DNA of 64,000 bases from assembly GCA_038134595.1 (NCBI GenBank), contig JAYPVM010000001.1, positions 230,299 through 294,298 on the forward strand. The letters run 5' to 3'. Made by a program: the position numbers and the translations under genes. Below, one piece after another: positions 16,441 to 57,922 of this stretch; positions within the stretch are counted from its first letter, which is position 1; each line of letters begins with the position of its first letter. This stretch comes from Pseudomonadota bacterium (GTDB lineage Bacteria; Bdellovibrionota_C; UBA2361; OMII01). The notes beneath the pieces were generated by a model. That model searched no databases, was not told the DNA's origin, and saw nothing but the letters and a program-made list of their open reading frames with translations.

Positions 16441-19400
16441 ATGGCGGTAGCAACAGGAGATACGCAGAGCGGTGGGGCAACACAATTTAACGGAGTCGTT
16501 GCCAGTAATGGGGTTGAAACGTTTAAGTCGACCTCTCTTGAGAACCACACGGTGGTGAAGCGTAACGGACAGCTCGTGCCATTTAGACGTTCTCGTATCC
16601 TTCGCGCAGTAGAGTTGGCGATACGGGCTACGTATTCAATAGCTCCTAGTGCGCCGTTACCACAGGAGTGGCACAGCAAAGCGCAGGAACTAACAGAGGG
16701 TGTCATTAAGACTATAGCGTTGGAAGCTGCAAAGGGGGCCTGTGTAACGGTAGAGGGCATTCAGGATGCGGTAGAGGTGTCCTTGATGCAGGCAGAGCTC
16801 TACGATGTGGCTAGAAATTACATTATATACAGAGATGAGCACAAAGCTGCGCGAGAGGATTCGCCCCGAAATCTAAAGATTACCCGACGGGATGGCAAGA
16901 CAGTAGTGAAGTTTAACCCGATGAAGATTGCATCGGCAATTGAGCGTGCCTTTCGTGCTTCAATGGAGCTCGACGGACAGACTCCGCCACAAGTAGTCAG
17001 CGCTGTAAATCAGGTAACCAACAAAGTGGTGAGTCGTGCAATGGAGATGTCGCGAGATGGCGTTGATTTGCATGTAGAGCTCATCCAAGACGAGGTCGAG
17101 CGTCAAATGATGGCCGAAGGCTACTATCAAATAGCTAAGGATTTCATTATCTATCGAGCAAAACGGTCGGCTCAGCGAGAGCTCGAAGATGCGCGTGAGG
17201 TTGCGGCTGTTGAGACGCCTGCTGTTGAAAAGAAGCCACGAGCTAAGGGAAGAGAGTTTGCAGCGACGGCTCCAGACGGAACGAAGATGTCAATATCAGA
17301 GGGGGAGCTGCGGAGTCGTCTAGAGCATGCCTGTAGAGGTCTTGAGAAGCTAACGAATCCAGAAGAGATACTTCAAGAGTCACTCAAAAACTTCTACGAG
17401 GGGATAAAGGTTGCCGAGATCGACCAAGCAAATATCATGGCAGCTCGGTCGAAGATAGAGAAGGATCCTGCTTACTCACATGTCACCGCCCGCTTGCTTC
17501 TTGATATTATCTATCGAGAGACGATGCAGGTTGACGCGCACAGTAAAGACCTAACCAAGGCACACCAGGAATACTTCAAGGCTGCTCTAAAGAAGGGTGT
17601 CTCTGTCGAGCGCATGGCCCCAGAACTGCTCGACTTCGATCTCGATAAGCTCGCAAAGGCGTTGAAATTAGAGCGCGATCTCGAGTTTCACTACTTGGGA
17701 CTTCAAACGCTTTACGATCGATACTTGATTCATCATGAAGATGTGAGACTTGAGACGCCGCAGATCTTCTGGATGCGTGTTGCAATGGGCCTAAGTGTGA
17801 ATGAGGGTAAACTCAAGAACGAAAGAGCCATTGAGTTTTATAATGTTCTTTCGAGCTTTCTCTTTACCTCGAGTACGCCAACGTTGTTCAACGCTGGAAC
17901 GCTTCATCCCCAATTGAGCTCATGTTACTTGACCACAATTATGGATGATTTACAGCACATATTTAAGTGCGTATCAGATGATGCACAACTTTCCAAATGG
18001 GCTGGAGGTCTTGGAAACGACTGGACGAACGTGCGCGCTACAGGAGCGCGCATCAAGGGAACAAATGGACGAAGCCAGGGGGTGATTCCATTCTTAAAAG
18101 TCGCAAATGATACCGCTGTCGCTGTCAATCAGGGAGGAAAGCGCAAAGGTGCGATGTGCGCATATCTAGAAACATGGCACTTGGATGTGGAGGATTTTCT
18201 AGAGCTAAGAAAGAACACGGGAGATGAGCGGCGTAGAACACACGACATGAATACAGCAAACTGGATTCCTGACTTGTTCATGAAAAGGGTTGCTCAAAAT
18301 GCCAAGTGGACTCTTTTTAGCCCAAGTGATGTGCCAGACCTGCACGACCTTTATGGTGCGAAGTTCGAGACTCGTTACCAAGAGTACGAAGCTATGGCTG
18401 AGCGCGGTGAGATAAAACTGCACAAGACTGTTGAGGCTATGACGTTGTGGCGTAAGATGCTAAGCATGGTTTTTGAGACCGGACATCCATGGATTACCTT
18501 CAAAGACCCATCTAATCTGCGCTCTCCGCAGGATCACGTTGGAGTTGTTCATAGTTCAAACTTGTGTACAGAGATCCTTTTAAATACATCCGCTGATGAG
18601 ACAGCTGTATGTAATCTAGGATCGGTGAATCTTGTTCGTCACGTTAGCAAGGACGGGTTGGATCACAAGCTTTTGGAGAAAACCGTCCGAACAGCTGTCC
18701 GAATGCTTGATAACGTTATCGATATTAACTTCTATCCGACAGCGGAGGCAAAAAACGCCAACTTGAGACACCGTCCTATTGGCCTCGGTCTCATGGGCTT
18801 TCAGGACGCCCTGTATGCACAGCGCATTAGCTACGCCAGTCCGGGAGCGGTGAAGTTTGCAGATGAGAGTATGGAGGCGATATCGTACTACGCGATCCTT
18901 GCATCGACTGAGCTAGCTAAAGAGAAAGGTACTTACACAACGTATGAAGGCTCTAAGTGGTCAAGGGGGCTACTGCCGATAGACACTGTGGCATCCTTAC
19001 CAGAGTCTCGTGGAGCTGAATATGCTGAAGTTGATTCGTCTTCGACTCTCGATTGGGGAGTTGTTCGCGAGGCGGTTAAAAAGCATGGAATGCGAAACAG
19101 CAATACCATGGCAATTGCTCCTACCGCGACTATCTCCAACATTACAGGTGTGAGTCAGTCGATCGAACCGAACTACAAGCATTTGTATGCAAAATCGAAC
19201 CTTTCGGGAGAGTTTATTGTTCACAATACATTCCTTGTAGAAGAGCTTAAGAAACTCAATATGTGGGATGAAGATATGATTGATGACCTTAAGTACTTCG
19301 ATGGGTCTATTCAAGAGATTGAGCGAATTCCTGAGGAGCTCAAAAGCGTGTATCTCACTGCGTTCGAGATAGAGCCCGAGTGGTTGATCGAATGTGGAAG

Positions 19401-45754: not shown

Positions 45755-48472
45755 ATGACACACAACTTATTTAACACACGACGGGAGTTTCAAACTGGAG
45801 CTGGAAATTCTGCAAGTTTTTACTCTATTCCAGCGCTCAAAGAGGCTGGATTCTCGCAGATTGACAGGCTTCCTGTCTCTATTCGAATTGTTTTGGAGTC
45901 TGTGCTTAGAAATTGCGATGGGGTTCGGGTTGAAGAGGGCTCTGTGCGTGAATTAGCTCAGTGGGATGCGACAGCAGAGCGATCTAAAGAGGTTCCCTTT
46001 GTTGTTTCGCGGGTGCTTTTACAGGACTTTACCGGAGTGCCCCTCGGTGTGGACTTAGCGGCCATGCGCGCTGCGGCAAAGGCAGTGGGAAAAGATCCAT
46101 CGGTGGTGGAGCCGTTGGTTCCTGTTGATTTAGTCATCGACCACTCTGTTCAGGTAGACTTCTCGCATAGAAATGATGCCTTGCAGCTAAACATGCAGAC
46201 CGAGTTCGATAGGAACAATGCTCGGTATGAGTTTCTCAAGTGGTGCAAGCAGGCGTTTAATTCTTTTAGCGTTGTGCCACCAGGATTTGGTATTTGCCAT
46301 CAAGTAAACCTCGAATATCTAGCGAAGGGAGTGTGCGAGCGTGAAGGTGTGTACTACCCCGATACTCTAGTGGGCACCGATTCGCACACAACGATGATCA
46401 ATGGCCTTGGTGTTGTTGGATGGGGTGTGGGAGGCATCGAGGCCGAGGCTGCAATGTTAGGACAGCCTGTGTATTTTCTTACGCCAGATGTTGTTGGGTT
46501 TCATATGCACGGGGAACTCGCTCCGGGTGTAACGGCGACTGATCTCGTTTTGCATGTTACAAACGTTCTGAGGCAGGCGAAGGTCGTTGGAAAGTTTGTA
46601 GAGTTTTTCGGCGAAGGAGCGAAGAAGCTTTCGGTCACTGATAGGGCAACAATCGCCAATATGGCGCCTGAATACGGGGCTACTATGGGATTTTTCCCGG
46701 TAGATGAGAGAACGTGCGAGTATTTGCTTGCTACAGGGCGTTCGCAGGAGCACGTCGATACATTTAGAAATTACTACACTGCACAAGGGCTTTTTGGAAT
46801 TCCTAGTAAGGGATCGTGTGATTACTCACAGGTAATCGATCTCGATTTGTCTAGCGTCCGCCCAAGCATTGCAGGGCCAAAGCGGCCACAGGATAAAATT
46901 GAATTGCCAGACGTACAGAGCACCTTTGAGTCGTTGTGCTTGAAGCCGATAGGGGAGGGAGGTTTTGGAAAGCAAGAAGAAGACTTGCAGAGCGAGTATA
47001 CGGTGTCGGTACCAAAGGGTGGCGTTGGTAGTGTCGATGGGGATGGCGTTGATGTAGCAGTGAAGCACGGAGAGGTGTTTATCGCAGCTATTACGTCGTG
47101 TACGAACACTTCAAATCCAAGTGTTATGCTAGCCGCAGGTTTGCTAGCAAAGAAGGCTGTTGAACGGGGCTTGTCAGTTAAGCCGTTTGTAAAGACCTCT
47201 CTTGCACCGGGCTCCCGAGTTGTGTCCGAGTATTTGAGCAAAACGGGCTTGCAGATATTTCTTGATGCACTTGGCTTTCAAGTAGTGGGATATGGATGTA
47301 CAACGTGCATCGGTAATTCGGGACCGCTTGATACGCACGTGGAGGAGTGCATCATCTCTAATGACTTAATCGGTTGCTCGGTTCTCTCTGGAAATCGAAA
47401 CTTTGAAGCAAGGGTACATCAGAATATAAAGGCGAACTTTTTGATGAGTCCTCCTCTGGTAGTTGCATACGCTTTAGCAGGAAGCGTTCGCGTTGATTTT
47501 GAGAGGGATCCCGTGGGTGTTGATAAGGATGGCAATGATGTGTTTCTCAAAGATATATGGCCTACGAGCCAGGAGATTGCAGCGTTGGTTCCAGCGGCTT
47601 TCGATGCCGAGATGTACAAGGATCTATACGGGGACGTTGGAGCAAAAAATCCACTCTGGGACTCGATAGCCTCAAAAGAGGGTATTGTCTACCAGTGGGA
47701 TGCAACATCAACGTACATTCAGGAACCGCCGTATTTTAAGGGATTTGGTGAAACTCCACCGTCTCCCGAGGGGATTACAGGGGCGCGAGCGCTTGCAGTG
47801 TTTGGAGATTCCGTGACTACAGATCACATTAGCCCAGCGGGAGCGATTAAAAAAGATTCGCCAGCAGGAGCGTATCTTATCTCGCGAGGTGTGGCACCGA
47901 AGGATTTTAACAGCTACGGAGCGCGTCGCGGTTCACACGATGTGATGGTTCGAGGAACTTTTGCGAATGTGCGGATTAAGAATCGGATGGTTCCAGGAGT
48001 TGAGGGAGGAGTAACGGTGCATCAACCTAGTGGTGAGCAGATGACTATCTATGATGCGTCGTGTCGATATCAAGAGACAAAAACTCCGCTTGTTGTGATA
48101 GCTGGGCAGGAGTACGGCACAGGTAGTTCCCGAGACTGGGCGGCGAAGGGAACAAAGCTTTTGGGGGTGCGGGCTGTTATTGCGCAAAGTTTCGAGAGGA
48201 TTCATAGGAGTAATCTAATCGGTATGGGAGTTTTGCCGTGTCAGTTTAAGGATGGTGATTCAGCTGATACTATAGGCATAACTGGAGTTGAGGAGTTTTC
48301 GCTGATTGGGATAGAAGACGGACTCACACCGGGGCAGGATGTCACACTTCGCATCACGAGGACTGATGGAACAAGCACTGATGTCGTCGTAACGCTTCGA
48401 GTTGATACCTCTGTAGAAGTTGAATACTTTAACCATGGAGGGATTTTGCCGTATGTGTTGCGCTCTTTGTAG
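45755..48472 (+). CDS. acnA: Aconitate hydratase A
   Basis: [63 protein letters not shown]. Confidence 0.99.
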
Positions 48473-48553
48473 TGCGAGATTTGTTTCGTTGAACGTGGTG
48501 CTACCTGCGTGGTAGCCTTGCTAAAGGTAGAGAGAAATATCGGAGAGGTGTTT

Positions 48554-49129
48554 ATGAAAAAGTTTTCGTGTGTATTGTTTGCTACTGCCCTTCTAGCTGC
48601 AGGATTTTTTATGGGAGCTAGTGGAGTTAATGATTTGCTAATCGAGCAAGCGCATGCTGATTCAGCAGGTAAGAAAGTGCCGATGTATCTCATCACTGCA
48701 GAAGGACAGGGCAGAAAAATCGGGGCTATAGTTCTTAAAGACAGCTCGCAAGGGCTTGTTGTGCAACCTAGAATTATCGGGCTTACCCCGGGAGAGCATG
48801 GGTTTCACGTTCACGAAAACCCAGATTGTAGTCCCAAGAAAAAAGATGGGAAGATGGTCGCGGGCTTGGCAGCAGGCTCACACTACGACCCACACAGTAC
48901 GAGCTCTCATAAGGGCCCGCATGGGGGCGGTCATTTAGGAGATCTACCGAAGCTTGTCGCTGATGAGTTGGGCGCTGTAGTTGATGCTGTGACGATTGCG
49001 GGTGTCACTGTTTCTGATGTCTCCAATCGAAGTCTTATGATTCATGCTGGTGGAGATAATTACTCAGACAGCCCCAATCCTCTAGGTGGTGGAGGAGCTC
49101 GAGTTGCTTGCGGGGTCATTCCGAAATAG
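48554..49129 (+). CDS. sodC: Periplasmic Cu/Zn superoxide dismutase
   Basis: Signal peptide; HGFHVHENPDC, GHLGDLP, LMIHAGGDNYSD, GGGGARVACG. Confidence 0.96.
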   Translation: MKKFSCVLFATALLAAGFFMGASGVNDLLIEQAHADSAGKKVPMYLITAEGQGRKIGAIVLKDSSQGLVVQPRIIGLTPGEHGFHVHENPDCSPKKKDGKMVAGLAAGSHYDPHSTSSHKGPHGGGHLGDLPKLVADELGAVVDAVTIAGVTVSDVSNRSLMIHAGGDNYSDSPNPLGGGGARVACGVIPK

Positions 49130-49198
49130 TTAAGCGGATTATACCGCCTTTTACCTTTTATTGCGTGGATAAAGCTCACGAAGAGTACGCTGGCTTTC

Positions 49199-49669
49199 AT
49201 GAAGATTCGCATAATCAGTGTTGGTAAGGTTCGCCAGAGTTTTGTGAAAGACGGTGAGGCGGAGTATCTGAAGCGAATAAAGGGTAGTGGGCTACATGTT
49301 ACTCTTGAAGAGCTAGGATTGGACGGGTCGCAATCGCTCAAGCCGGAGGAGGTTCAGGAGCGAGAGGGACAGGAGCTTCTAAAGCGCCTAAAGCCTGGCG
49401 AGCTTCTTGTAGTGCTTGATGAGCGGGGAAGGAGCCTATCATCGAAGCAGTTTGCAAACGTAGTAGAAGGCTGGATGCGAAGTGGCACCAAAACAGTCGT
49501 GTTTGTTATTGGAGGGGCATATGGGTTCTCTGAAAACGTTCGGCAGTCGGCAGATTATGTCTTGTCTTTGTCAGCGATGACACTCCCACATCAGCTAACA
49601 CGTCTGGTTCTTGTTGAGCAGATCTATAGGGCGCAGACGCTTGTGCAAGGAGTGGGGTATCATAAGTGA
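49199..49669 (+). CDS. rlmH: 23S rRNA pseudouridine1915 N3-methyltransferase
   Basis: LDERG, FVIGGAYG, SLSAMTLPHQL.R.VLVEQIYRA, GYHK. Confidence 0.97.
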   Translation: MKIRIISVGKVRQSFVKDGEAEYLKRIKGSGLHVTLEELGLDGSQSLKPEEVQEREGQELLKRLKPGELLVVLDERGRSLSSKQFANVVEGWMRSGTKTVVFVIGGAYGFSENVRQSADYVLSLSAMTLPHQLTRLVLVEQIYRAQTLVQGVGYHK

Positions 49670-49967
49670 CAAAAAGGTTAGATGTATCCTTGTAAATCTG
49701 GGAAGAGAATTTAAGTCGTTAGGCGGTAGGACGATTCCTATAATAAATTTAAATGTAGGGTGTTTGCCATCGGTAGAACGCACGGCCCCCCCTCCCTCTC
49801 TTTCTCTCTGAAAACGTTAGACAATTGGGAGCCTACGATTTATCGTTGTCGATGTAACGAGGCTATACGGACTAATATATCCCGAGAGGATTTCTAAGAC
49901 GATTCGGATGTTTTTGCCATAAAAGAGTAATTACTTTGCGAGATCTTGATACGGCTAAGCGATTAGA

Positions 49968-50471
49968 GTGGGAGTTATCACAGTGGGAGCGATAAAGAAG
50001 TTTACAAAGAGGGGCTTGCGTTCGATCGTTGGGGGTAGAAGCCCTGTTCGAGTAGTAGAGGAGCTCATTGTTCGTAAGGGATTTGATCCTGATGCGTGCA
50101 AGACTGAGGATGAGAGCGGATCTGTTCGGTGGATGTTTGCGGTGCGCGATGCTTGTGAGCTTGAGATTTTGATCGAGGGTAAAGACTCTAAGGAGGATGC
50201 GACCGTTTATCTAGGCCTAAACGTTTTGACTGTGCCGATTCGGGGTGCCGGTGATGTATTGGCGGCGGCGCTTGAGGTAGCGGATGGTCTCATCGGTGTT
50301 AAAGTTAGCCTGGTCGGACACTATTTAGTTTTGAGCGCTGGTCTTAGTGCGCAGGGCATTACCGTTGAAGATTTGGAGTACCACGTGAGGTTAATAGAGG
50401 CGCAAGAGAGTTGGTTTCGTGATGCGGTTGCTTCAAATTTAGGCTGGGATGTCGCTGGTGATGGAGAGTAG
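49968..50471 (+). CDS. YbjN / T3SS-chaperone-like fold hypothetical protein
   Basis: Acidic 167-aa protein with a beta-strand pattern and C-terminal helix typical of YbjN/CesT-like proteins (by eye). Confidence 0.55.
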   Translation: MGVITVGAIKKFTKRGLRSIVGGRSPVRVVEELIVRKGFDPDACKTEDESGSVRWMFAVRDACELEILIEGKDSKEDATVYLGLNVLTVPIRGAGDVLAAALEVADGLIGVKVSLVGHYLVLSAGLSAQGITVEDLEYHVRLIEAQESWFRDAVASNLGWDVAGDGE

Positions 50472-52805: not shown

Positions 52806-53894
52806 GTGAAAAAGCGAAGTAAGGTCTTAGAGAGACAAGAAAAATCTCATAAGGCGAGTGATCCCGTACTCGAAGTTGAGGTAGTGCCAGCGGATGAAGA
52901 AGCACAATCCGTTGTTGGCGATCAGTTAGATGATGGAGACGTTATCGATGTTGATTTCTCTGTTGAGGAAAGTGGCGATGAAGATCAGAGTCAAACGCAT
53001 CTAGAACCGACTCGGAGGTCAAGTGCGAGCGAGCGGAGCGTTGTACCGTACAATGCGCTCGATGCCTATCTGGGAGAGATTCGTAGATTCAGCCCGCTTA
53101 CGAAAGAAGAAGAGCACGCTGTTGCAGTTGAGTATCTTAAGACAAAGAGTCCCGAGGCTGCATACACACTGGTGTCGAGTACTTTGTGGCTTGTCGTAAA
53201 AATCGCGCGAGATTACGAGCGTGTTGCTAAAAACGTTCTCGATCTTATCCAAGAGGGAAATATAGGATTGATGGAAGCGGTTCAAAACTTCGATCCGTAT
53301 CGAGGTGTGCGCTTTCCGAGCTATGCTGTGTGGTGGATAAGAGCGTATATTATACGCTACATCATCGCTAATTGGCGAATGGTCAAGATAGGCACAACGC
53401 AAGCTCAGCGAAAACTTTTCTTTAATCTTAGAAAGGAGGCGGACCGCCTGGAGCGAGAAGGGATTTATCCCTCAACAAAACTTCTGGCTGAACGGCTGCA
53501 AGTGAAGGAAGGCGAGGTCGTAGAGATGTCTCAGCGTTTGGGAGGGTCAGATGTAAGCTTTGATGCTCCTATTCAAGAGGATGGTTCTTCCGATCTTTTG
53601 TCTATTCATCCCGTAGAAGAGGTGTCTACAGAGGAGCTTGTTGCGAAAAAACAGCTACAACAAGCGCTCTCGGACGCGATAGAATCCTTTAAAAAAGAAC
53701 TGAACACGAAGGAAGAGGCGGTACTAACAGGACGCATTCTTGCCGAGGAAAAGCGAACGCTACAGGAACTGTCTGACTTGTTGCTAATTAGTAAAGAGCG
53801 TGTAAGACAGATTGAAAACAAGGTGCGAGAGCGCTTGCGAGCGTTTGTTGCGCAGGAACTGGGAGCAGATCTCCAAGATTGGATGGGCGATTAA
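52806..53894 (+). CDS. rpoH: RNA polymerase sigma factor, sigma-32 family
   Basis: DLIQEGNIGLM, YAVWWIRAYI, RpoH box QRKLFFNLR, ERVRQIE; acidic N-terminal extension. Confidence 0.9.
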   Translation: MKKRSKVLERQEKSHKASDPVLEVEVVPADEEAQSVVGDQLDDGDVIDVDFSVEESGDEDQSQTHLEPTRRSSASERSVVPYNALDAYLGEIRRFSPLTKEEEHAVAVEYLKTKSPEAAYTLVSSTLWLVVKIARDYERVAKNVLDLIQEGNIGLMEAVQNFDPYRGVRFPSYAVWWIRAYIIRYIIANWRMVKIGTTQAQRKLFFNLRKEADRLEREGIYPSTKLLAERLQVKEGEVVEMSQRLGGSDVSFDAPIQEDGSSDLLSIHPVEEVSTEELVAKKQLQQALSDAIESFKKELNTKEEAVLTGRILAEEKRTLQELSDLLLISKERVRQIENKVRERLRAFVAQELGADLQDWMGD

Positions 53895-54076
53895 TCGAAC
53901 TTTGCATAACCGCTTTCTAGAATGGCGAGGCGGGATATTTCGCAGTTTAATATCGTTAAACAAATAATCATCAGAGAATTAAGCGTATAGCTTCTGTTTC
54001 CACATCCTGTGGATATCTCATAGTTAGTGCGAAAAGAAATTAAGTAATTTAAAGTTAGTAAATACGCACTTTTTTC

Positions 54077-54104
54077 TTGAATTCTAAAGGTGCTGTGGTA
54101 TTCC
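54077..54104 (+). promoter_or_regulatory. Putative sigma70-type promoter of the large ncRNA
   Basis: TTGAAT (54077-54082) and extended -10 TGgTATTCC (54096-54104), with AT-rich sequence upstream, just before the first paired segment. Confidence 0.5.
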
Positions 54105-54110
54105 TTGTGA

Positions 54111-55074
54111 AGAGTCGAGATGACGACGAACCTTCCGAAAGAAATTGAGGAAGCCGACCTCGAAGTTGCTCTCCGAAAAGAAAACTAAATCGAAAGATTT
54201 ATTTTTTTGAAAGATGAAGCGACCAGGCGAAGCGCATGGAAAGGCACTTTGAATTCCTGACTAGAGAGGTACTCTTGTAGACCCGTTGGAGTTTATCGCA
54301 AGATATTTTTCCTACGGAGAGTTTGCAAGACACGAGAACAGGCATTCGCTTTTTCTCGTGGCATCGATGGTGTTTTCCTGATGATGGTGTCAAAGCCAAC
54401 AAAAGCGATAAACAACAAGAGGGCAGGAGCTGTAAAAGGTGAGGGCTCGTAAAGATGCAGTCGAGTGGCACGCTGTCGAAAGACAGTTGGCGACAACTCC
54501 AGCATGAGTTGGAGGCTTTTGCCGAAAGGCTTAGGCAGGCTATTTGAAAAAGTAGTCTCTGTTATCACTCGGTCTTTCTTCTGGGAGCACCGGAAGAAAA
54601 GAATCACTCCCTACGGGTTGTGCCCCGTAGGAAGGCAAAAGCGGTTGTGGTGACACGGTCCTTTTGTAGGCTTTACGTTCTTAGAGGTATCCCTTTGGGG
54701 ATTCCAAAGGTTTTGGTATGAAATTCCACGTTGGTTTTGAACCTTTTTGGGTTCGGGGCTTTTTGGGATTAGGGACTAAAATCCGGTTAGGTCTTCTCTC
54801 TTCGGATAGAAGACAGGGTTCGACGGTTCAGGTAACTGAAATTCGATCGAAAGCGCTCGAGGGTGGGAAACCGCCATTAGAGGTTGACGACAGAGCACAA
54901 CGGGAGACCGGTCTATTGTCGTTAATCGCGAAAGAGACCCTGCGATTGTAAGAAATTTCGGCTCGACTAGGAGGGATAAAACTCTTCGGGTCAAAGTTAC
55001 AAAGTTAGATCCGTCATAAGAGCTGGCTTTTTGGCATGCGCGCGGCACGATCGAGAGATCTGCCGCGTTTTTTT
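54111..55074 (+). ncRNA. Candidate large (~960 nt) highly structured non-coding RNA, family unassigned
   Basis: No credible ORF; more than 15 hairpins, many with GNRA or cUUCGg loops; long-range 5'/3' helices; flanked by a promoter-like site and an intrinsic terminator. Confidence 0.8.
55041..55074 (+). terminator. Intrinsic terminator ending the candidate ncRNA
   Basis: cgcggca-c-gatc-GAGA-gatc-tgccgcg followed by T7. Confidence 0.88.
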
Positions 55075-55488
55075 ATGTCTGCATTGGATTCTTTAAAGTG
55101 CGGCACCTGGTTGTGCTGATCGGGAAAAGGACGGATCGGGAAAAAGAAACTGTTCAGTAAAGTAAGAAAAATCTGTTTTAGCTAAGATTTGCTTTTGGCT
55201 GAGATTTGCTATGGAGGGAGCAGGGCCCGTTTCTCTATTGGAGGGAAGAAACGGGCCCAGCAGCCTTTGGCACGCGCGCTCTCGGTGTGGAAAACGTGCG
55301 TCGATCCGTCATAGTGAGACTTTAGATGACGAAAGTGTTTTGAACAATTCCCTAAATATTGGCGGTAGTTATAAATATTTTCGTTATCTGTGTTAAATAT
55401 AATCAACCACTTAAGTTCGTTCGATAACTCGCAAAATTTAAGTAGGTGGTATATTCTGTCCGCGACAAGCCTAATGGAGTAGCGGGCG

Positions 55489-55896
55489 ATGGGACGAATT
55501 TTTATCAGTTTTGTAGTTTTCTTCATGGTCGCCGGTGGCGTTTTAGTCTTTCAGGCTACAAAGGGGACAAGCTCTCTTGTGGTAATGCCCTCGGAACTTT
55601 TGAAGCAAGCTCATGCAGGTAATCTATTTCGAATTCGGGTGGGTGGGCGTGTCGTCGGCCCCATTGAATATCAAACCGATCCAAGCTTTGTTCTCCGGTT
55701 TGCTGTTCGGGATCCGAAAGGAGGAGAGCAGGTAGTGCCCGTTGTTTATCGGGGCATTAAGCCGGATATGTTTCAGGCTGAGCGCGATGTGCTCATAGAT
55801 GGCGACTTGCGTCAGGGGATCATTGAAGCGGCATCACTGCAAACGCAGTGCCCGTCTAAATACGAACCTGTAAGTCCCGGAGATCAAGCAAAGTAA
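55489..55896 (+). CDS. ccmE: Cytochrome c maturation heme chaperone, CxxxY type
   Basis: N-terminal TM, RIRVGGRV, VVYRGIKPDMF, QCPSKY. Confidence 0.93.
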   Translation: MGRIFISFVVFFMVAGGVLVFQATKGTSSLVVMPSELLKQAHAGNLFRIRVGGRVVGPIEYQTDPSFVLRFAVRDPKGGEQVVPVVYRGIKPDMFQAERDVLIDGDLRQGIIEAASLQTQCPSKYEPVSPGDQAK

Positions 55897-55912
55897 GCAT
55901 AAGAGGTGTGGT

Positions 55913-57922
55913 GTGATTGAATTCGGGTTGTTTTCGCTTTGTGTCGCGTGGCTTCTTACGGTCTTTGTTGTTTGTGGAGGGGTGTTCTGCGGCCTGTATC
56001 GAAGAGACTCTCGTGTCTTGATTGAGGTTCTACGGAGGGCGAGCATCTTTATTGCCGTTACGTTGGGCTGTGCTCTTTTTGGGCTTGGGTACGGCTTTGT
56101 AACTAATGACTATTCAATTCAGTACATTTGGCAGTATTCAAATCGTGAAATGCCGTGGATATATAAGATAACAGCTATTTGGGGCGGTATGGACGGCTCG
56201 ATGTTGTTGTGGTGCTTTTTGGTCGCACTATTCGGGGCGTGCATGGCAGCTGTTTCCAAACAATATCCGCGACCTCTTCTTCCGTGGCTGTATGCCGCTG
56301 TGTCGTCTTCGACATTATTCTTCACCACTATCACACTGTTTTTTACCAACCCGTTCCGATTTCTAAAGTCAGCGGTGATGATGCCGGATGGAAATGGTTT
56401 AAATCCCCTTCTTCAGAATGAATACATGGCGATTCACCCGCCGATGCTTTATCTGGGGTTTACAGGTTTGGCTATTCCGTATGCGTTTTGTATGGCAGCA
56501 CTCGCTTCGGGACACATGTCGAACGATTGGATCCGTCTTACAAGACGGTGGACGTTGATCGGATGGGCGTTTCTGACTGCTGGTATCGTTCTCGGTGGGC
56601 ATTGGGCATATCTTGAGCTGGGCTGGGGTGGTTTTTGGGCTTGGGATCCTGTTGAGAATGCTTCGTTTCTTCCGTGGCTAACCGCGACCGCGTTTTTGCA
56701 CTCTGTCATGGTGCAAGAGCGAAAAGGAATGTTAAAGATTTGGAATGTATTTCTGGTCGTTTTAACGTATGCGCTCACGGTATTTGGAACCTTCTTGACC
56801 CGTTCGGGAATTGTACAGAGTGTGCATGCGTTTGCATCGACTGATATTGGATGGATTTTTCTTACCTATTTAGCGGCGCTGATAGTGCTGGCTTTGGCTT
56901 TGGTTATATACCGCTGGTCTGCGCTTCAGTCGGAGCGAGTTATTGAGAGCCTTTTCTCGCGAGAGGCTGTGTTTTTACTGAATAATCTGGTTCTTCTTAG
57001 TATCTGTTTTGCCGTGTTGTGGGGTGTTTTGTTTCCTGTCTTCTCGGAGGCATTTACAGGACAAAAGCAAACGGTTGGAATTCCTTTCTTTAATGCAGTG
57101 AATGTTCCGCTGTTTTTAGCGCTTGTTTTTCTGATGGGTGTAGGCCCCACCGTCGCATGGAGGCATACATCGCTTCGGCATATTGTAAGGGCTTTTGTAT
57201 CGCCGTTTATCGGAGCGCTTGTTGTTTCGACAGCTCTTGTATGGGCTGGGATCCCCGATTTTTATCCCGTTTTGTCGTACGGAATTTGCTTCTTTGTTTT
57301 GATGACTATCTGGGGGGAGCTTCAGCGTGGCGCTCGAGTTCAAAGTGGCATCACAAAGGCAAGCCCATGGAGCGTTCGGACGTGGATAGCTATGTTGCTG
57401 CGTCATCGAGTTAAGTATGGTGCACATCTGATACACTTCGGTGTCGTTGTAATGACAATAGCGATTACAGCGTCCATGGCACACAAAATTGAGCGTGAAT
57501 TTACCTTGGCTCCTGGCGAACGCTTCTCCGTAGGGCGATTTGCATTGGAGCTCGAGGAATTTCATGAGGAAAGAGAGCCTAATTACGATGCTCTACAAGC
57601 GCATGTTGCTGTATATTCTGCTGCTACGGGAGAACGCATTGAGACGCTTGCTCCAGAACTCCGATTTTATACGAAGAACAAGGAAACGACGACAGAGGTA
57701 GCGCTTCGAATGGGACAACGGGAGGATCTATATTTGATTCTTGCCGGCGTTGACGAAACTGGATCAAAAGCTTCGATGAAGGTTTTTATCAATCCACTTC
57801 AAGTATGGTTGTGGTACGGTGCTATTATCATGGTACTGGGAGGTGCTATTGTTGCAGTTCCTGTTGGATCTCGAACGAGAGAAGCGTCGGTGAGTAAGAA
57901 TTTTGCATCGGAGGGTGTATGA
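55913..57922 (+). CDS. ccmF: Cytochrome c heme lyase
   Basis: GNGLNPLLQ, IHPP, WAYLELGWGGFWAWDPVENAS, TRSGIVQSVHAF. Confidence 0.97.
   Translation: MIEFGLFSLCVAWLLTVFVVCGGVFCGLYRRDSRVLIEVLRRASIFIAVTLGCALFGLGYGFVTNDYSIQYIWQYSNREMPWIYKITAIWGGMDGSMLLWCFLVALFGACMAAVSKQYPRPLLPWLYAAVSSSTLFFTTITLFFTNPFRFLKSAVMMPDGNGLNPLLQNEYMAIHPPMLYLGFTGLAIPYAFCMAALASGHMSNDWIRLTRRWTLIGWAFLTAGIVLGGHWAYLELGWGGFWAWDPVENASFLPWLTATAFLHSVMVQERKGMLKIWNVFLVVLTYALTVFGTFLTRSGIVQSVHAFASTDIGWIFLTYLAALIVLALALVIYRWSALQSERVIESLFSREAVFLLNNLVLLSICFAVLWGVLFPVFSEAFTGQKQTVGIPFFNAVNVPLFLALVFLMGVGPTVAWRHTSLRHIVRAFVSPFIGALVVSTALVWAGIPDFYPVLSYGICFFVLMTIWGELQRGARVQSGITKASPWSVRTWIAMLLRHRVKYGAHLIHFGVVVMTIAITASMAHKIEREFTLAPGERFSVGRFALELEEFHEEREPNYDALQAHVAVYSAATGERIETLAPELRFYTKNKETTTEVALRMGQREDLYLILAGVDETGSKASMKVFINPLQVWLWYGAIIMVLGGAIVAVPVGSRTREASVSKNFASEGV

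Follow-up and report, generated by a model that had tools for sequence, protein, structure and literature searches.

What is encoded in the 1.6-kb gap that separates rpoH from ccmE in the 64,000-nucleotide stretch of DNA analysed here (the window)? The original prediction, made from the letters of the window, saw no credible open reading frame in the gap and proposed a stand-alone structured RNA of about 960 nt on the plus strand. Folding energy, covariation, the absence of a reading frame, Rfam searches and contigs from RNA libraries bear this out. Positions 54111–55074 of the plus strand constitute an independent gene whose product is a non-coding RNA of 964 nt, highly structured and abundantly transcribed, abundance being taken from contig word depth, a poor measure of expression.

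54111–55074, plus strand: structured non-coding RNA of 964 nt (fold z-score, covariation, RNA-library contigs, conserved 5′ AGAG)

Fold and covariation

Compared with 20 dinucleotide shuffles (−302.9 ± 6.1 kcal/mol), the plus strand of 54100–55080 folds with a far lower energy (−362.8 kcal/mol, z −9.85). The opposite strand reaches a z of only −3.56, in agreement with the strand originally assigned. The 13 stems listed in the prediction are all correctly placed, and 11 of them close exactly as described in the ViennaRNA minimum-energy fold of 54111–55074; stem 54575–54599 forms 7 of its 11 pairs, and stem 54692–54710 is supplanted. Six of the 13 lie in or touch stretches unique to the source genome. 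Hairpins of at least three pairs closed by GNRA tetraloops number 11, against 3.0 ± 1.6 in 200 shuffles, and the same excess is found in 10 of 11 other family members tested, the exception being the 363-nt member L008 (2 hairpins vs 1.0 ± 1.1).

Alignment A2, which consists of only six related sequences, all full-length homologues, contains 247 shared predicted pairs in 38 helices. Two-sided changes occur in 108 of these pairs, against 60.4 ± 4.8 in shuffles, none of 500 of which gets there, and 28–43 in slid-alignment controls. Across the six homologues, 90.4% of the paired cells can pair, compared with 80.5% in the shuffles. The long-range helices and the parts confined to the source genome are as follows.

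54112–54121, plus strand: 5′ strand of the closing helix P1 (helix 1), paired with 54955–54963
54955–54963, plus strand: 3′ strand of P1, paired with 54112–54121
54123–54134 with 54816–54827, plus strand: long-range helix P2 (helix 2), three pairs changed on both sides
54150–54155 with 54669–54674, plus strand: long-range helix P3 (helix 3), 94.4% paired
54682–54781, plus strand: largest genome-specific expansion, 100 nt, a gap in at least four of the five other A2 sequences
54164–54192, 54302–54312, 54486–54503 and 54529–54554, plus strand: smaller genome-specific expansions, gaps in at least four of the five other A2 sequences

P1, in which the paired share is 90.7% and GC/GU as well as UA/UG exchanges occur, brings the 5′ end of the RNA beside its 3′ module. 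A similar closing helix was read by eye in G030, G093, G080 and G081. Between the P1 strands sits a GNRA-rich body that changes very fast in both sequence and size.

Absence of a reading frame and of known RNA families

The longest open reading frame in the gap spans at most 104 aa. Those of the homologues range from 50 to 163 aa and differ in place and strand, so that the conserved frame feared as an alternative is not kept. The G000 row of the alignment has 12 gap runs, not one of which is a multiple of three, and most runs in the other rows are not multiples of three either. The RNA at 54111–55074 is not a protein-coding gene or a small-ORF mRNA.

Rfam 15 (4227 models) has no match at E ≤ 1 in 53000–56000, be it GOLLD, ROOL, OLE, HEARO or raiA, or the 6S, group I or group II models, and a permissive threshold returned nothing relevant in 12 other member loci. 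Nine members had no relevant match; all that turned up were below-threshold miRNA and leader models on one hairpin (L047:458–570), at and just past the 3′ end of the RNA in L047, where the R1 match lies at L047:562–650 on the minus strand. In L014, L018 and L020, the one match was to a fragment of LSU rRNA, in the part of L014 that is chimeric. The RNase P RNA (C3:59344–59714, 268.7 bits), tmRNA (C10:83534–83949, 167.2 bits) and SRP RNA (C1:360380–360472, 49.5 bits) of the genome all score over the cut-off. All three sit elsewhere in the genome, consistent with the claim that the RNA is neither RNase P RNA nor tmRNA, and it is not the SRP RNA. The 6S model RF00013 has no match anywhere in the genome; it found 6S in only 5 of 14 control genomes, and its silence therefore means little. 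The novelty predicted for the RNA stands: no Rfam 15 family matches it or the other members tested, and it belongs to an undescribed RNA family, for which we found no earlier description. The likeness to GOLLD, ROOL and OLE that had been pointed out holds for size and ornateness and for nothing beyond these.

Several specific roles were considered and rejected. A CsrA sponge of the CsrB/RsmZ type does not fit, the RNA being depleted in GGA (17 vs 25.4 ± 3.4 in shuffles); ANGGA occurs 4 times vs 7.2 ± 2.3 in shuffles, and no GGA enrichment was seen in 11 other members. CsrA genes are present in the genome. An Hfq- or ProQ-dependent small RNA was dismissed because PF17209 and PF04352 have no match in G000 (94% complete), and a replication origin or terminus because the GC skew is positive across the entire window.

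Transcripts in RNA libraries

RNA-library contigs agree with the transcript expected from the prediction. Eleven database rows recorded as RNA contain the stretch. Contigs from four RNA runs of three metatranscriptome studies are confined to 54120–55057, with 3′ ends at 55023–55057, and two of the libraries with such contigs total less than 4 million letters. Within 53500–55700, the flanks 53500–54091 and 55128–55700 have no cover by RNA-run contigs, which is a weak hint at most. Three contigs of 1040–1070 nt start 2–8 nt ahead of AGAG; their other ends fall within the conserved CGCGGC tract, where the terminator stem has its base, or directly behind it. One contig stops at 55039, where adapter sequence follows immediately, a candidate processed end; the 5′ end of the transcript is predicted at 54110–54112. 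In one contig of a metagenome collection, an LSU rRNA fragment is fused to the AGAG start of the RNA.

A constant handle on a variable body

The RNA ends in a series of elements that recur throughout the family.

54965–54992, plus strand: penultimate hairpin of the GGAGGGAUAAAACUCUUC type (helix 36, 90% paired)
54998–55033, plus strand: hairpin H1, whose loop (55009–55022) is the family signature UCCGUCAYAAGA
55035–55044, plus strand: alternating pyrimidine–purine tract CAYGYGCGCG, which bridges H1 and the terminator and makes up the base of the latter's stem
55040–55074, plus strand: intrinsic terminator with a GC-rich stem, GAGA loop and U7 (helix 38, 100% paired)

Every member shares a handle composed of the 5′ AGAG, P1, the penultimate hairpin, H1 and the CAYGYGCGCG tract leading into the terminator. 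AGGGAAU-type hairpins resembling the penultimate one were seen by eye in distant members. In an alignment of 23 members, the H1 stem covaries across the phylum (AGUUAG/CUGGCU, AGUUGG/CUAACU, AGCUGG/CUAGCU), while its loop is near-invariant. The CAYGYGCGCG tract is also kept phylum-wide, and the upper part of the terminator stem is free to vary. The strong terminator foreseen at the 3′ end is real and conserved, though absent from a consensus scan. A proposed pairing of the H1 loop with 5′ AUGACG was rejected: these 5′ bases are already engaged in the covarying P1 and P2, and M021 shows no compensation. A sigma-54 promoter in the GGCACGUGCGCGGCA tract was rejected as well, the GG not being kept in other members when inspected by eye.

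Downstream of the terminator, after about 190 nt, lies a further element that repeats motifs of the RNA.

55263–55359, no strand assigned: companion element repeating the RNA motifs UUUGGCACGCGCGC, GAUCCGUCAUA and AGAUGACGA

Its copies are identical to the H1 loop at 11 of 11 positions, to the tract at 13 of 14 and to the 5′ motif at 9 of 9. A sequence model of the companion scores 78–83 bits in its four training loci, which are the only close-relative loci with enough downstream DNA, and has no match in the other 35 of the 39 sources searched.

Promoter and upstream operators

The region upstream of the RNA contains three elements.

53946–53960, no strand assigned: operator 1, palindrome TTTAA-N5-TTAAA, with spacing kept to within 1 nt in eight carrier loci
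53996–54016, no strand assigned: operator 2, head-to-head DnaA-box-like 9-mers GTTTCCACA-TCC-TGTGGATAT at a conserved position
54077–54104, plus strand: sigma-70-type promoter read by eye (−35 TTGAAT at 54077–54082, extended −10 TG at 54096–54097, TATTCC at 54099–54104)

The promoter-like site claimed to precede the RNA thus finds a counterpart at 54077–54104. This promoter is not among the matches of a consensus promoter scan; we favour it because homologues are preceded by the same layout (TTGAWW, 16–18 nt, TAnnnn, AGAG). In most family members, the spacing between operator 2 and the promoter is unchanged. From the start of operator 1 to the operator-2 CCACA there are exactly 54 nt in seven carrier loci and 53 nt in the eighth, and the combined operator signature is found with no mismatch in 8 of 124 genomes. 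As a genome-enriched motif on its own, TTTAA-N5-TTAAA was discarded, showing no enrichment (9 sites vs about 4.3 expected). TCCACA-N3-TGTGGA has a single occurrence in the 2.6-Mb genome.

The 9-mers of operator 2 resemble the DnaA-box consensus, and in L065 they form a perfect pair, TTATCCACA-GAG-TGTGGATAA. Judged by this resemblance, DnaA may bind at operator 2. According to PMC6868365, boxes I and II of E. coli DARS1 and DARS2 lie 5 bp apart; the arrangement here is similar in having two close, opposed DnaA boxes and, at a set spacing within a regulatory arm, one more protein site, and differs in having 3 bp rather than 5 bp between the boxes. With a strong promoter about 105 nt downstream, operator 2 is more simply explained as an ordinary operator than as a DARS.

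Distribution, size and genomic setting

A model of the 3′ module matches 31 of the phylum's 124 species genomes, spread over 23 of its 64 genera, the class and the phylum comprising the same 124 genomes; in the order, 19 of 91 genomes have a match. The family belongs to one small Bdellovibrio-like phylum and is present in at least a quarter of its species genomes. There is one match per carrier genome, except for G114 with two contig hits. Within the genus, only 4 of 35 genomes have the RNA, and the other 31 lack it whether judged by the 3′ module or by the operator signature; the RNA is therefore dispensable. Weak 3′-module matches (24–37 bits) in G000:C3, G013, G042, G018:C6, G001 and G012 were judged to be ordinary terminators: that in G013 directly follows a small ORF, itself located downstream of a gyrB-like gene, while the remaining ones look like it. 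No match to the family signature was found in viral contigs.

Member lengths range from about 190 to 1060 nt, and the upper limit is probably about 2000 nt. The two putative giants, G080 and G081, with transcripts of 1.7–2.0 kb, have no BLAST match to any other member; what makes them candidate members is the operator signature, together with the promoter, closing helix and loop-like motifs read by eye.

The original prediction placed the RNA in a core chromosomal locus, and this part did not hold: in three relatives (G001, G042 and G047) rpoH adjoins ccmE directly, with gaps of about 60–190 nt, and in other carriers the RNA gene is placed elsewhere, next to a hydrolase gene, purF, or map and an EVE-domain gene. 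The accompanying claim of no phage or transposase nearby was correct; the neighbours, among them rpoH, ccmE/F, purF and map, are housekeeping genes.

Possible functions

We propose that the RNA may be an abundant, trans-acting molecule that serves as a scaffold or sequesters other molecules. A specific partner, most probably a protein, would dock on its invariant 3′ handle, the body would supply a compact, nuclease-resistant fold, and DnaA at the operator would tie RNA synthesis to replication or growth state. Considered as a function, an abundant scaffold or sequestering RNA that binds its partner through the 3′ module under DnaA control is a tentative suggestion, appreciably short of an even chance. 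The explanation as a whole, that of a new non-coding RNA family combined with a trans-acting scaffold whose synthesis is tied to DnaA, is in our view slightly better than evens. Against the scaffold, no protein gene travels with the RNA across carrier loci, the RNA can be dispensed with inside the genus, where 31 of 35 genomes are without it, and Hfq and ProQ were not found in the 94%-complete genome. A bolder version, which we consider rather doubtful, treats the family as phylum-specific "accordion" RNAs of about 190 nt to about 2 kb, whose handle would build a particle or titrate a central factor while DnaA switches production.

The abundance of the RNA and the lack of a linked protein gene would also suit a particle made of RNA only, that is, a symmetric homo-oligomer held together by loop–loop and A-minor contacts like ROOL, GOLLD and OLE, with GNRA loops and self-complementary CAYGYGCGCG stretches as the glue. 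Such a particle would account for the 4- to 5-fold excess of GNRA hairpins in nearly all members tested and for the palindromes GCAUGC, CACGUG, CGUACG and ACAUGU read by eye in the tracts of different members. Kissing loops, A-minor contacts and covarying palindromic loop tetranucleotides are described for ROOL, GOLLD and OLE oligomers in PMC12286853. However, the body that would bear the contacts is conserved neither in sequence nor in size, two members of one taxonomic family have no mutual BLAST match, the terminator stem takes up half of the tract, and a defined cage would be hard to maintain from 190 to 2000 nt; we regard this explanation as unlikely. A conserved H1 loop on a covarying stem could instead be the seed of a base-pairing regulator, for which the companion at 55263–55359, if transcribed from the minus strand, would provide an exactly complementary partner. 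The companion does carry copies of the loop, the tract and the 5′ motif and is kept in all four close relatives with enough flank, but it is not seen beyond the closest clade, and genome scans for the complement of the H1 loop gave scattered single matches without a conserved site. With Hfq and ProQ not found, and an ornate 1-kb body that seed-type action would not need, this role seems quite improbable.

A selfish or mobile RNA-gene cassette, in which the block from the TTTAA palindrome to the companion (~53946–55359) moves together and the RNA serves its own maintenance, is suggested by the genomic setting. The 1.6-kb stretch is regarded as an insertion because rpoH and ccmE are adjacent in G001, G042 and G047; the position differs in every carrier lineage, and the occurrence within the genus is patchy while the flanking motifs are conserved. 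Yet ordinary rearrangement and loss could yield the same picture, and the phylum-wide spread looks mostly vertical. The single copy per genome, the zero viral-contig matches and the absence of any recombinase, transposase, terminal inverted repeats or target duplications in what we saw make a cassette very improbable. That the RNA is a ribozyme, or acts on RNA polymerase as a decoy in the manner of 6S, we find hardly credible. Large ribozymes do share its nested long-range helices and abundant tetraloops, but a catalytic core should be conserved, and here only the terminal handle is. A decoy would fit the high abundance, as for 6S, and the silence of RF00013, a weak point given its record in the control genomes; the fold, however, is branched (38 helices) and lacks the rod shape and central bubble of 6S. 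The models for 6S and for group I and group II introns find no match, and most of the genus is without the RNA, which speaks against either role.

Comparison with known RNAs and implications

Like GOLLD and ROOL, the RNA described here is large, ornate, multi-helical and patchy in occurrence, with function and protein partner not known, and it makes heavy use of tetraloop and A-minor type elements. ROOL RNAs are also large. Many GOLLD members exceed 800 nt, and phages or prophages carry the genes of both RNAs, frequently close to tRNA islands, according to PMC12286853. In contrast, the present RNA lies among chromosomal housekeeping genes with no adjoining phage gene or tRNA, has a far wider size range and a conserved operator region with a DnaA-box-like pair, and matches neither family in Rfam by sequence or structure.

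6S and CsrB/RsmZ RNAs are abundant, trans-acting and ended by an intrinsic terminator, and their size varies between species. The RNA here shares the abundance, the intrinsic terminator and the variable size, but it is GGA-depleted, has no 6S-like rod and has no Rfam match. With OLE, whose protein genes adjoin it, the RNA has in common that it is an abundant, large, structured chromosomal non-coding RNA of restricted lineage. OLE is an abundant and well-structured RNA of about 600 nt from Bacillota, well conserved in sequence and size, that forms a membrane ribonucleoprotein with dedicated proteins, as stated in PMC12054373 and PMC12265935. The RNA here differs in its hypervariable body and in having no linked protein gene and no Rfam match.

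This family is backed by covariation and natural transcripts and is abundant enough to be assembled from tiny metatranscriptomes. It is seldom that a new class of large, complex bacterial RNA comes to light; RNase P, group I and II introns, tmRNA, OLE, GOLLD and ROOL each opened new biochemistry. The constant small handle, the roughly ten-fold change in body size and the paired DnaA boxes of the present family are not known from those RNAs. Binding to the handle and mutation of the boxes offer a route to function, the handle being a probe with which to find partners, and for structural studies the members of different natural size already amount to a deletion analysis. If the accordion reading is true, these would be structural RNAs tied into the replication cycle, perhaps together with a companion element of their own, and a new kind of RNA biology outside the GOLLD, ROOL and OLE classes, and the largest members would be the longest known bacterial non-ribosomal structured RNAs.

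A structured RNA in the rpoH–ccmE gap

The 1.6-kb gap between the end of the rpoH-like sigma gene (53894) and the start of ccmE (55489) contains no ORF longer than 104 aa. Folding was compared with dinucleotide-shuffled controls, as suggested in the original prediction of a + strand RNA. The + strand of 54100–55080 folds at −362.8 kcal/mol, compared with −302.9 ± 6.1 for 20 shuffles (z −9.85); the strand assignment is correct because the − strand reaches a z of only −3.56. GNRA tetraloops close 11 short hairpins (3.0 ± 1.6 in 200 shuffles). All 13 stems initially listed are present at their predicted positions, and 11 of them close exactly in the minimum-energy fold of 54111–55074; the stem at 54575–54599 forms 7 of its 11 pairs there, and that at 54692–54710 is replaced.

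Elements of the transcription unit read by eye
54077–54082, +, promoter −35 element TTGAAT
54096–54104, +, extended −10 element TG-n-TATTCC
54111, +, RNA start, conserved AGAG
55040–55074, +, terminator

These promoter and terminator calls are based on conservation because a consensus scan picked up neither (54077–54104; 55040–55074). Homologues are preceded and ended by a matching layout, which agrees with the proposed stand-alone transcript running from a promoter-like site to a terminator.

Covariation and coding potential

In a BLASTN search of 41 related genomes, the region matched six, including the window's own. Full-length relatives of 765–800 nt were obtained from three genomes of the same genus (G014, G018 and G023) and two metagenome loci (L015 and L021); the mean column identity of these five to the window is 63%. 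From the six-sequence alignment, RNAalifold predicted 247 pairs in 38 helices, among them three nested long-range helices.

Long-range helices predicted by RNAalifold
54112–54121 with 54955–54963, +, P1
54123–54134 with 54816–54827, +, P2
54150–54155 with 54669–54674, +, P3

A small set (six related sequences) and a structure taken from that very alignment make the absolute covariation figures flattering, but their margin over the controls is large: 90.4% of cells are paired on the consensus structure, compared with 80.5% in shuffles and 39–43% in slid controls, and 108 pairs are changed on both sides, compared with 60.4 ± 4.8 in shuffles (0 of 500 reach 108) and 28–43 in slid controls. No reading frame is conserved among the homologues, whose longest frames vary in place and strand, and almost no gap runs are divisible by three (0 of 12 in the row of the window's genome). 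The noncoding call thus stands with respect to both covariation and reading frame. Five private expansions, of which that at 54682–54781 is the largest, account for the greater length of the window's RNA compared with its relatives; six of the 13 listed stems fall in or touch them.

Expression

Among the sequencing runs listed, 20 rows from 10 studies contain the stretch or part of it, 11 of them recorded as RNA. Contigs from four RNA runs of three studies, compared with 53500–55700, fall within 54120–55057, in keeping with the predicted transcript.

Contigs from RNA sequencing runs
X10, 942 nt, 54124–55039, word depth 314.6
X4, 898 nt, 54160–55057, word depth 11.2
X3, 705 nt, 54351–55055, word depth 34
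X8, 876 nt, 54148–55023, word depth 7.81

The X3 and X4 libraries comprise only 3.8 and 1.8 million letters. Length multiplied by word depth comes, by rough reckoning, to 0.1–0.8% of the letters read, although such depth reflects expression poorly; for these RNA runs, the uncovered flanks within 53500–55700 are at most a weak hint. The X10 contig passes at 55039 directly into Illumina adapter sequence, which may mark a 3′ end, either processed or left by a reverse-transcription stop, immediately 5′ of the terminator stem. X8 additionally contains a 613-nt relative (depth 248) that has only its 5′ and 3′ parts in common with the RNA.

Independent support for expression comes from L014, a 1021-nt metagenome-collection contig in which an LSU-rRNA fragment (100 bits) is fused to the RNA at its AGAG start, and from three 1040–1070-nt contigs of a GC-richer relative, which start 2–8 nt 5′ of AGAG and end in or just past CGCGGC, a conserved tract that lies where the terminator stem begins. 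The RNA part of the chimeric L014 is a ~97%-identical strain variant with the 54180–54225 region replaced by other sequence.

Comparison with known RNAs

The Rfam 15 search (4227 models), proposed at the outset as a check on novelty, gave no match to 53000–56000 at E ≤ 1, and for 12 other loci of the family it yielded no relevant match. The RNase P RNA, tmRNA and SRP RNA of the genome lie at other sites, and these identities were rejected, in accord with the earlier failure to see RNase P or tmRNA hallmarks. The proposed likeness to GOLLD, ROOL and OLE holds for scale and ornateness only; the RNA fails every membership feature testable here. The freely available main texts of papers on large ncRNAs, Bdellovibrionota and DnaA boxes yielded no description. 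We consider it very probable that the RNA represents a real family of structured ncRNAs that has not been described before, in line with the new class that the original prediction offered as one option.

A CsrA sponge was rejected since GGA motifs are depleted, though CsrA genes are present; the 2.6-Mb genome has three CsrA-family matches, two of them adjacent (G000:C11:13017–13755 and C4:158869–159021). GC skew takes no turn across the window, which is thus neither oriC nor terminus. The family signature had 0 matches in viral contigs.

A constant handle and a variable body

For the last 90 nt, a covariance model was built (R1) and then refined on 23 members (R2). Matches were found in 19 of 91 genomes of the order and 31 of 124 of the class (23 of 64 genera); the phylum search covered the identical 124 genomes. 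Carriers have one match each, except G114, with two contig matches, and account for 18 of the 73 genomes that are ≥90% complete and ≤5% contaminated. In the window's genus, pattern, model and operator signature agree on 4 carriers among 35 genomes; 24–30-bit matches in five near-complete members look like ordinary terminators and were discarded.

Constant throughout the phylum are the AGAG start, the closing helix P1, the penultimate hairpin, hairpin H1 with its near-invariant loop UCCGUCAYAAGA (UGCCCUCAAAA in other orders) and covarying stem (AGUUAG/CUGGCU, AGUUGG/CUAACU, AGCUGG/CUAGCU), and the alternating pyrimidine-purine tract CAYGYGCGCG, which continues into the terminator stem. This tract (55035–55044; also 55268–55279) alternates perfectly and holds many short palindromes; it could be important at the RNA level, as a dimer contact or a protein site, or at the DNA level, where it would be prone to a left-handed helix. 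The body between the P1 strands varies throughout the family. By our promoter-to-terminator reading, members measure ~186 nt (G093), ~360 nt (G030 and G038), ~400 and ~650 nt (others), 765–800 nt (the window's genus and family f2), 964 nt (the window's genome) and ~1040–1060 nt (metagenome contigs).

Control region and companion element

Elements flanking the transcription unit
53946–53960, operator 1, palindrome TTTAA-N5-TTAAA, conserved, 5′ of the promoter
53996–54016, operator 2, head-to-head DnaA-box-like 9-mers with a 3-bp space, conserved, 5′ of the promoter
55222–55260, strong 12-bp hairpin GGGCCCGUUUCU/AGAAACGGGCCC, directly 5′ of the companion element
55263–55359, companion element, ~190 nt 3′ of the terminator, repeating three RNA motifs

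The RNA has a conserved two-operator promoter. The distance from the start of operator 1 to that of CCACA in operator 2 is exactly 54 nt in seven loci and 53 nt in an eighth. The combined signature occurs without mismatch in 8 of 124 genomes (a reversed-pattern control gave three matches, all at up to 2 mismatches), and the box pair occurs once in the genome. Several members have boxes that fit the DnaA-box consensus perfectly, as in L065 (TTATCCACA-GAG-TGTGGATAA), and DnaA may bind operator 2. The arrangement recalls the DARS core of E. coli, whose boxes are likewise opposed but 5 bp rather than 3 bp apart (PMC6868365).

The motif copies in the companion element match the RNA at 13/14 positions in the tract, 11/11 in the H1 loop and 9/9 in the 5′ AGAUGACGA; the element ends in AACAAUUCCCUUUUU. 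The element is kept in all four close-relative loci with enough downstream DNA, ~190–340 nt 3′ of the RNA terminator across loci (in relatives, L021:1057–1154, −; L003:1943–2032, +; L004:337–427, −); a search of 35 further sources did not reveal it. Relatives have a hairpin at the same place, with a sequence that differs among loci. The companion element lacks contig cover in the four RNA runs, an absence that is at most a weak hint.

Possible functions

The RNA is abundant, independently transcribed and elaborately folded; its small handle is invariant, whereas its body is free-running. We infer that the handle and the folded state are under selection rather than any particular body; a docking or sequestering scaffold therefore fits better than a ribozyme. 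Our tentative preference is for a scaffold acting in trans, whose 3′ handle would dock a specific partner and whose synthesis would track DnaA status. Next to this, a ribozyme or 6S-like decoy appears highly improbable; the 6S model (RF00013) matched nowhere in the genome, in a search of low sensitivity.

A self-assembling RNA-only particle, for which the GNRA loops and the palindromes of the tract could supply contacts but which fits the free-running body less well, is rather unlikely. A seed-type base-pairing regulator could work together with the companion element, which on the − strand would be exactly complementary to the handle; Hfq and ProQ were not found in the genome, and we regard this role as doubtful. 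As for a mobile cassette, rpoH and ccmE are direct neighbours in three genus relatives (G001, G042 and G047; L070, L071 and L072), with gaps of ~60–190 nt, so the window's 1.6-kb cassette (53895–55488) is an insertion or relocation in this genome's lineage; in other carriers the RNA gene lies next to a hydrolase, purF, or map and an EVE-domain gene. Its surroundings show neither a recombinase nor phage genes and no repeats at the ends, and we think mobility improbable. Of the core locus originally described as lacking phage and transposase, the lack of such genes stands; the adjacency of rpoH and ccmE in relatives speaks against the rest.

Candidate giant members

Six of the eight signature carriers were already known. 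In the other two, G080 and G081 of family f10, both missed by R2, the family promoter leads into long stretches with terminators at their ends.

Candidate members
G080, C434, about 16865–18545, +, ~1680 nt (in L083/L086)
G081, C65, about 48115–50128, −, ~2011 nt (in L084/L085)

These contain no ORFs above 115 aa (G080) or 96 aa (G081) and fold better than shuffles (z −1.7 to −6.1 for G080; −4.5 to −5.9 in all five windows for G081). Inspection by eye showed, in both, a closing helix that resembles P1 and a loop that resembles that of H1; BLAST found no similarity of the two to each other or to other members. They are probable, not proven, members of the family, and if they are true members, its distribution is broader than 31 of 124 genomes.
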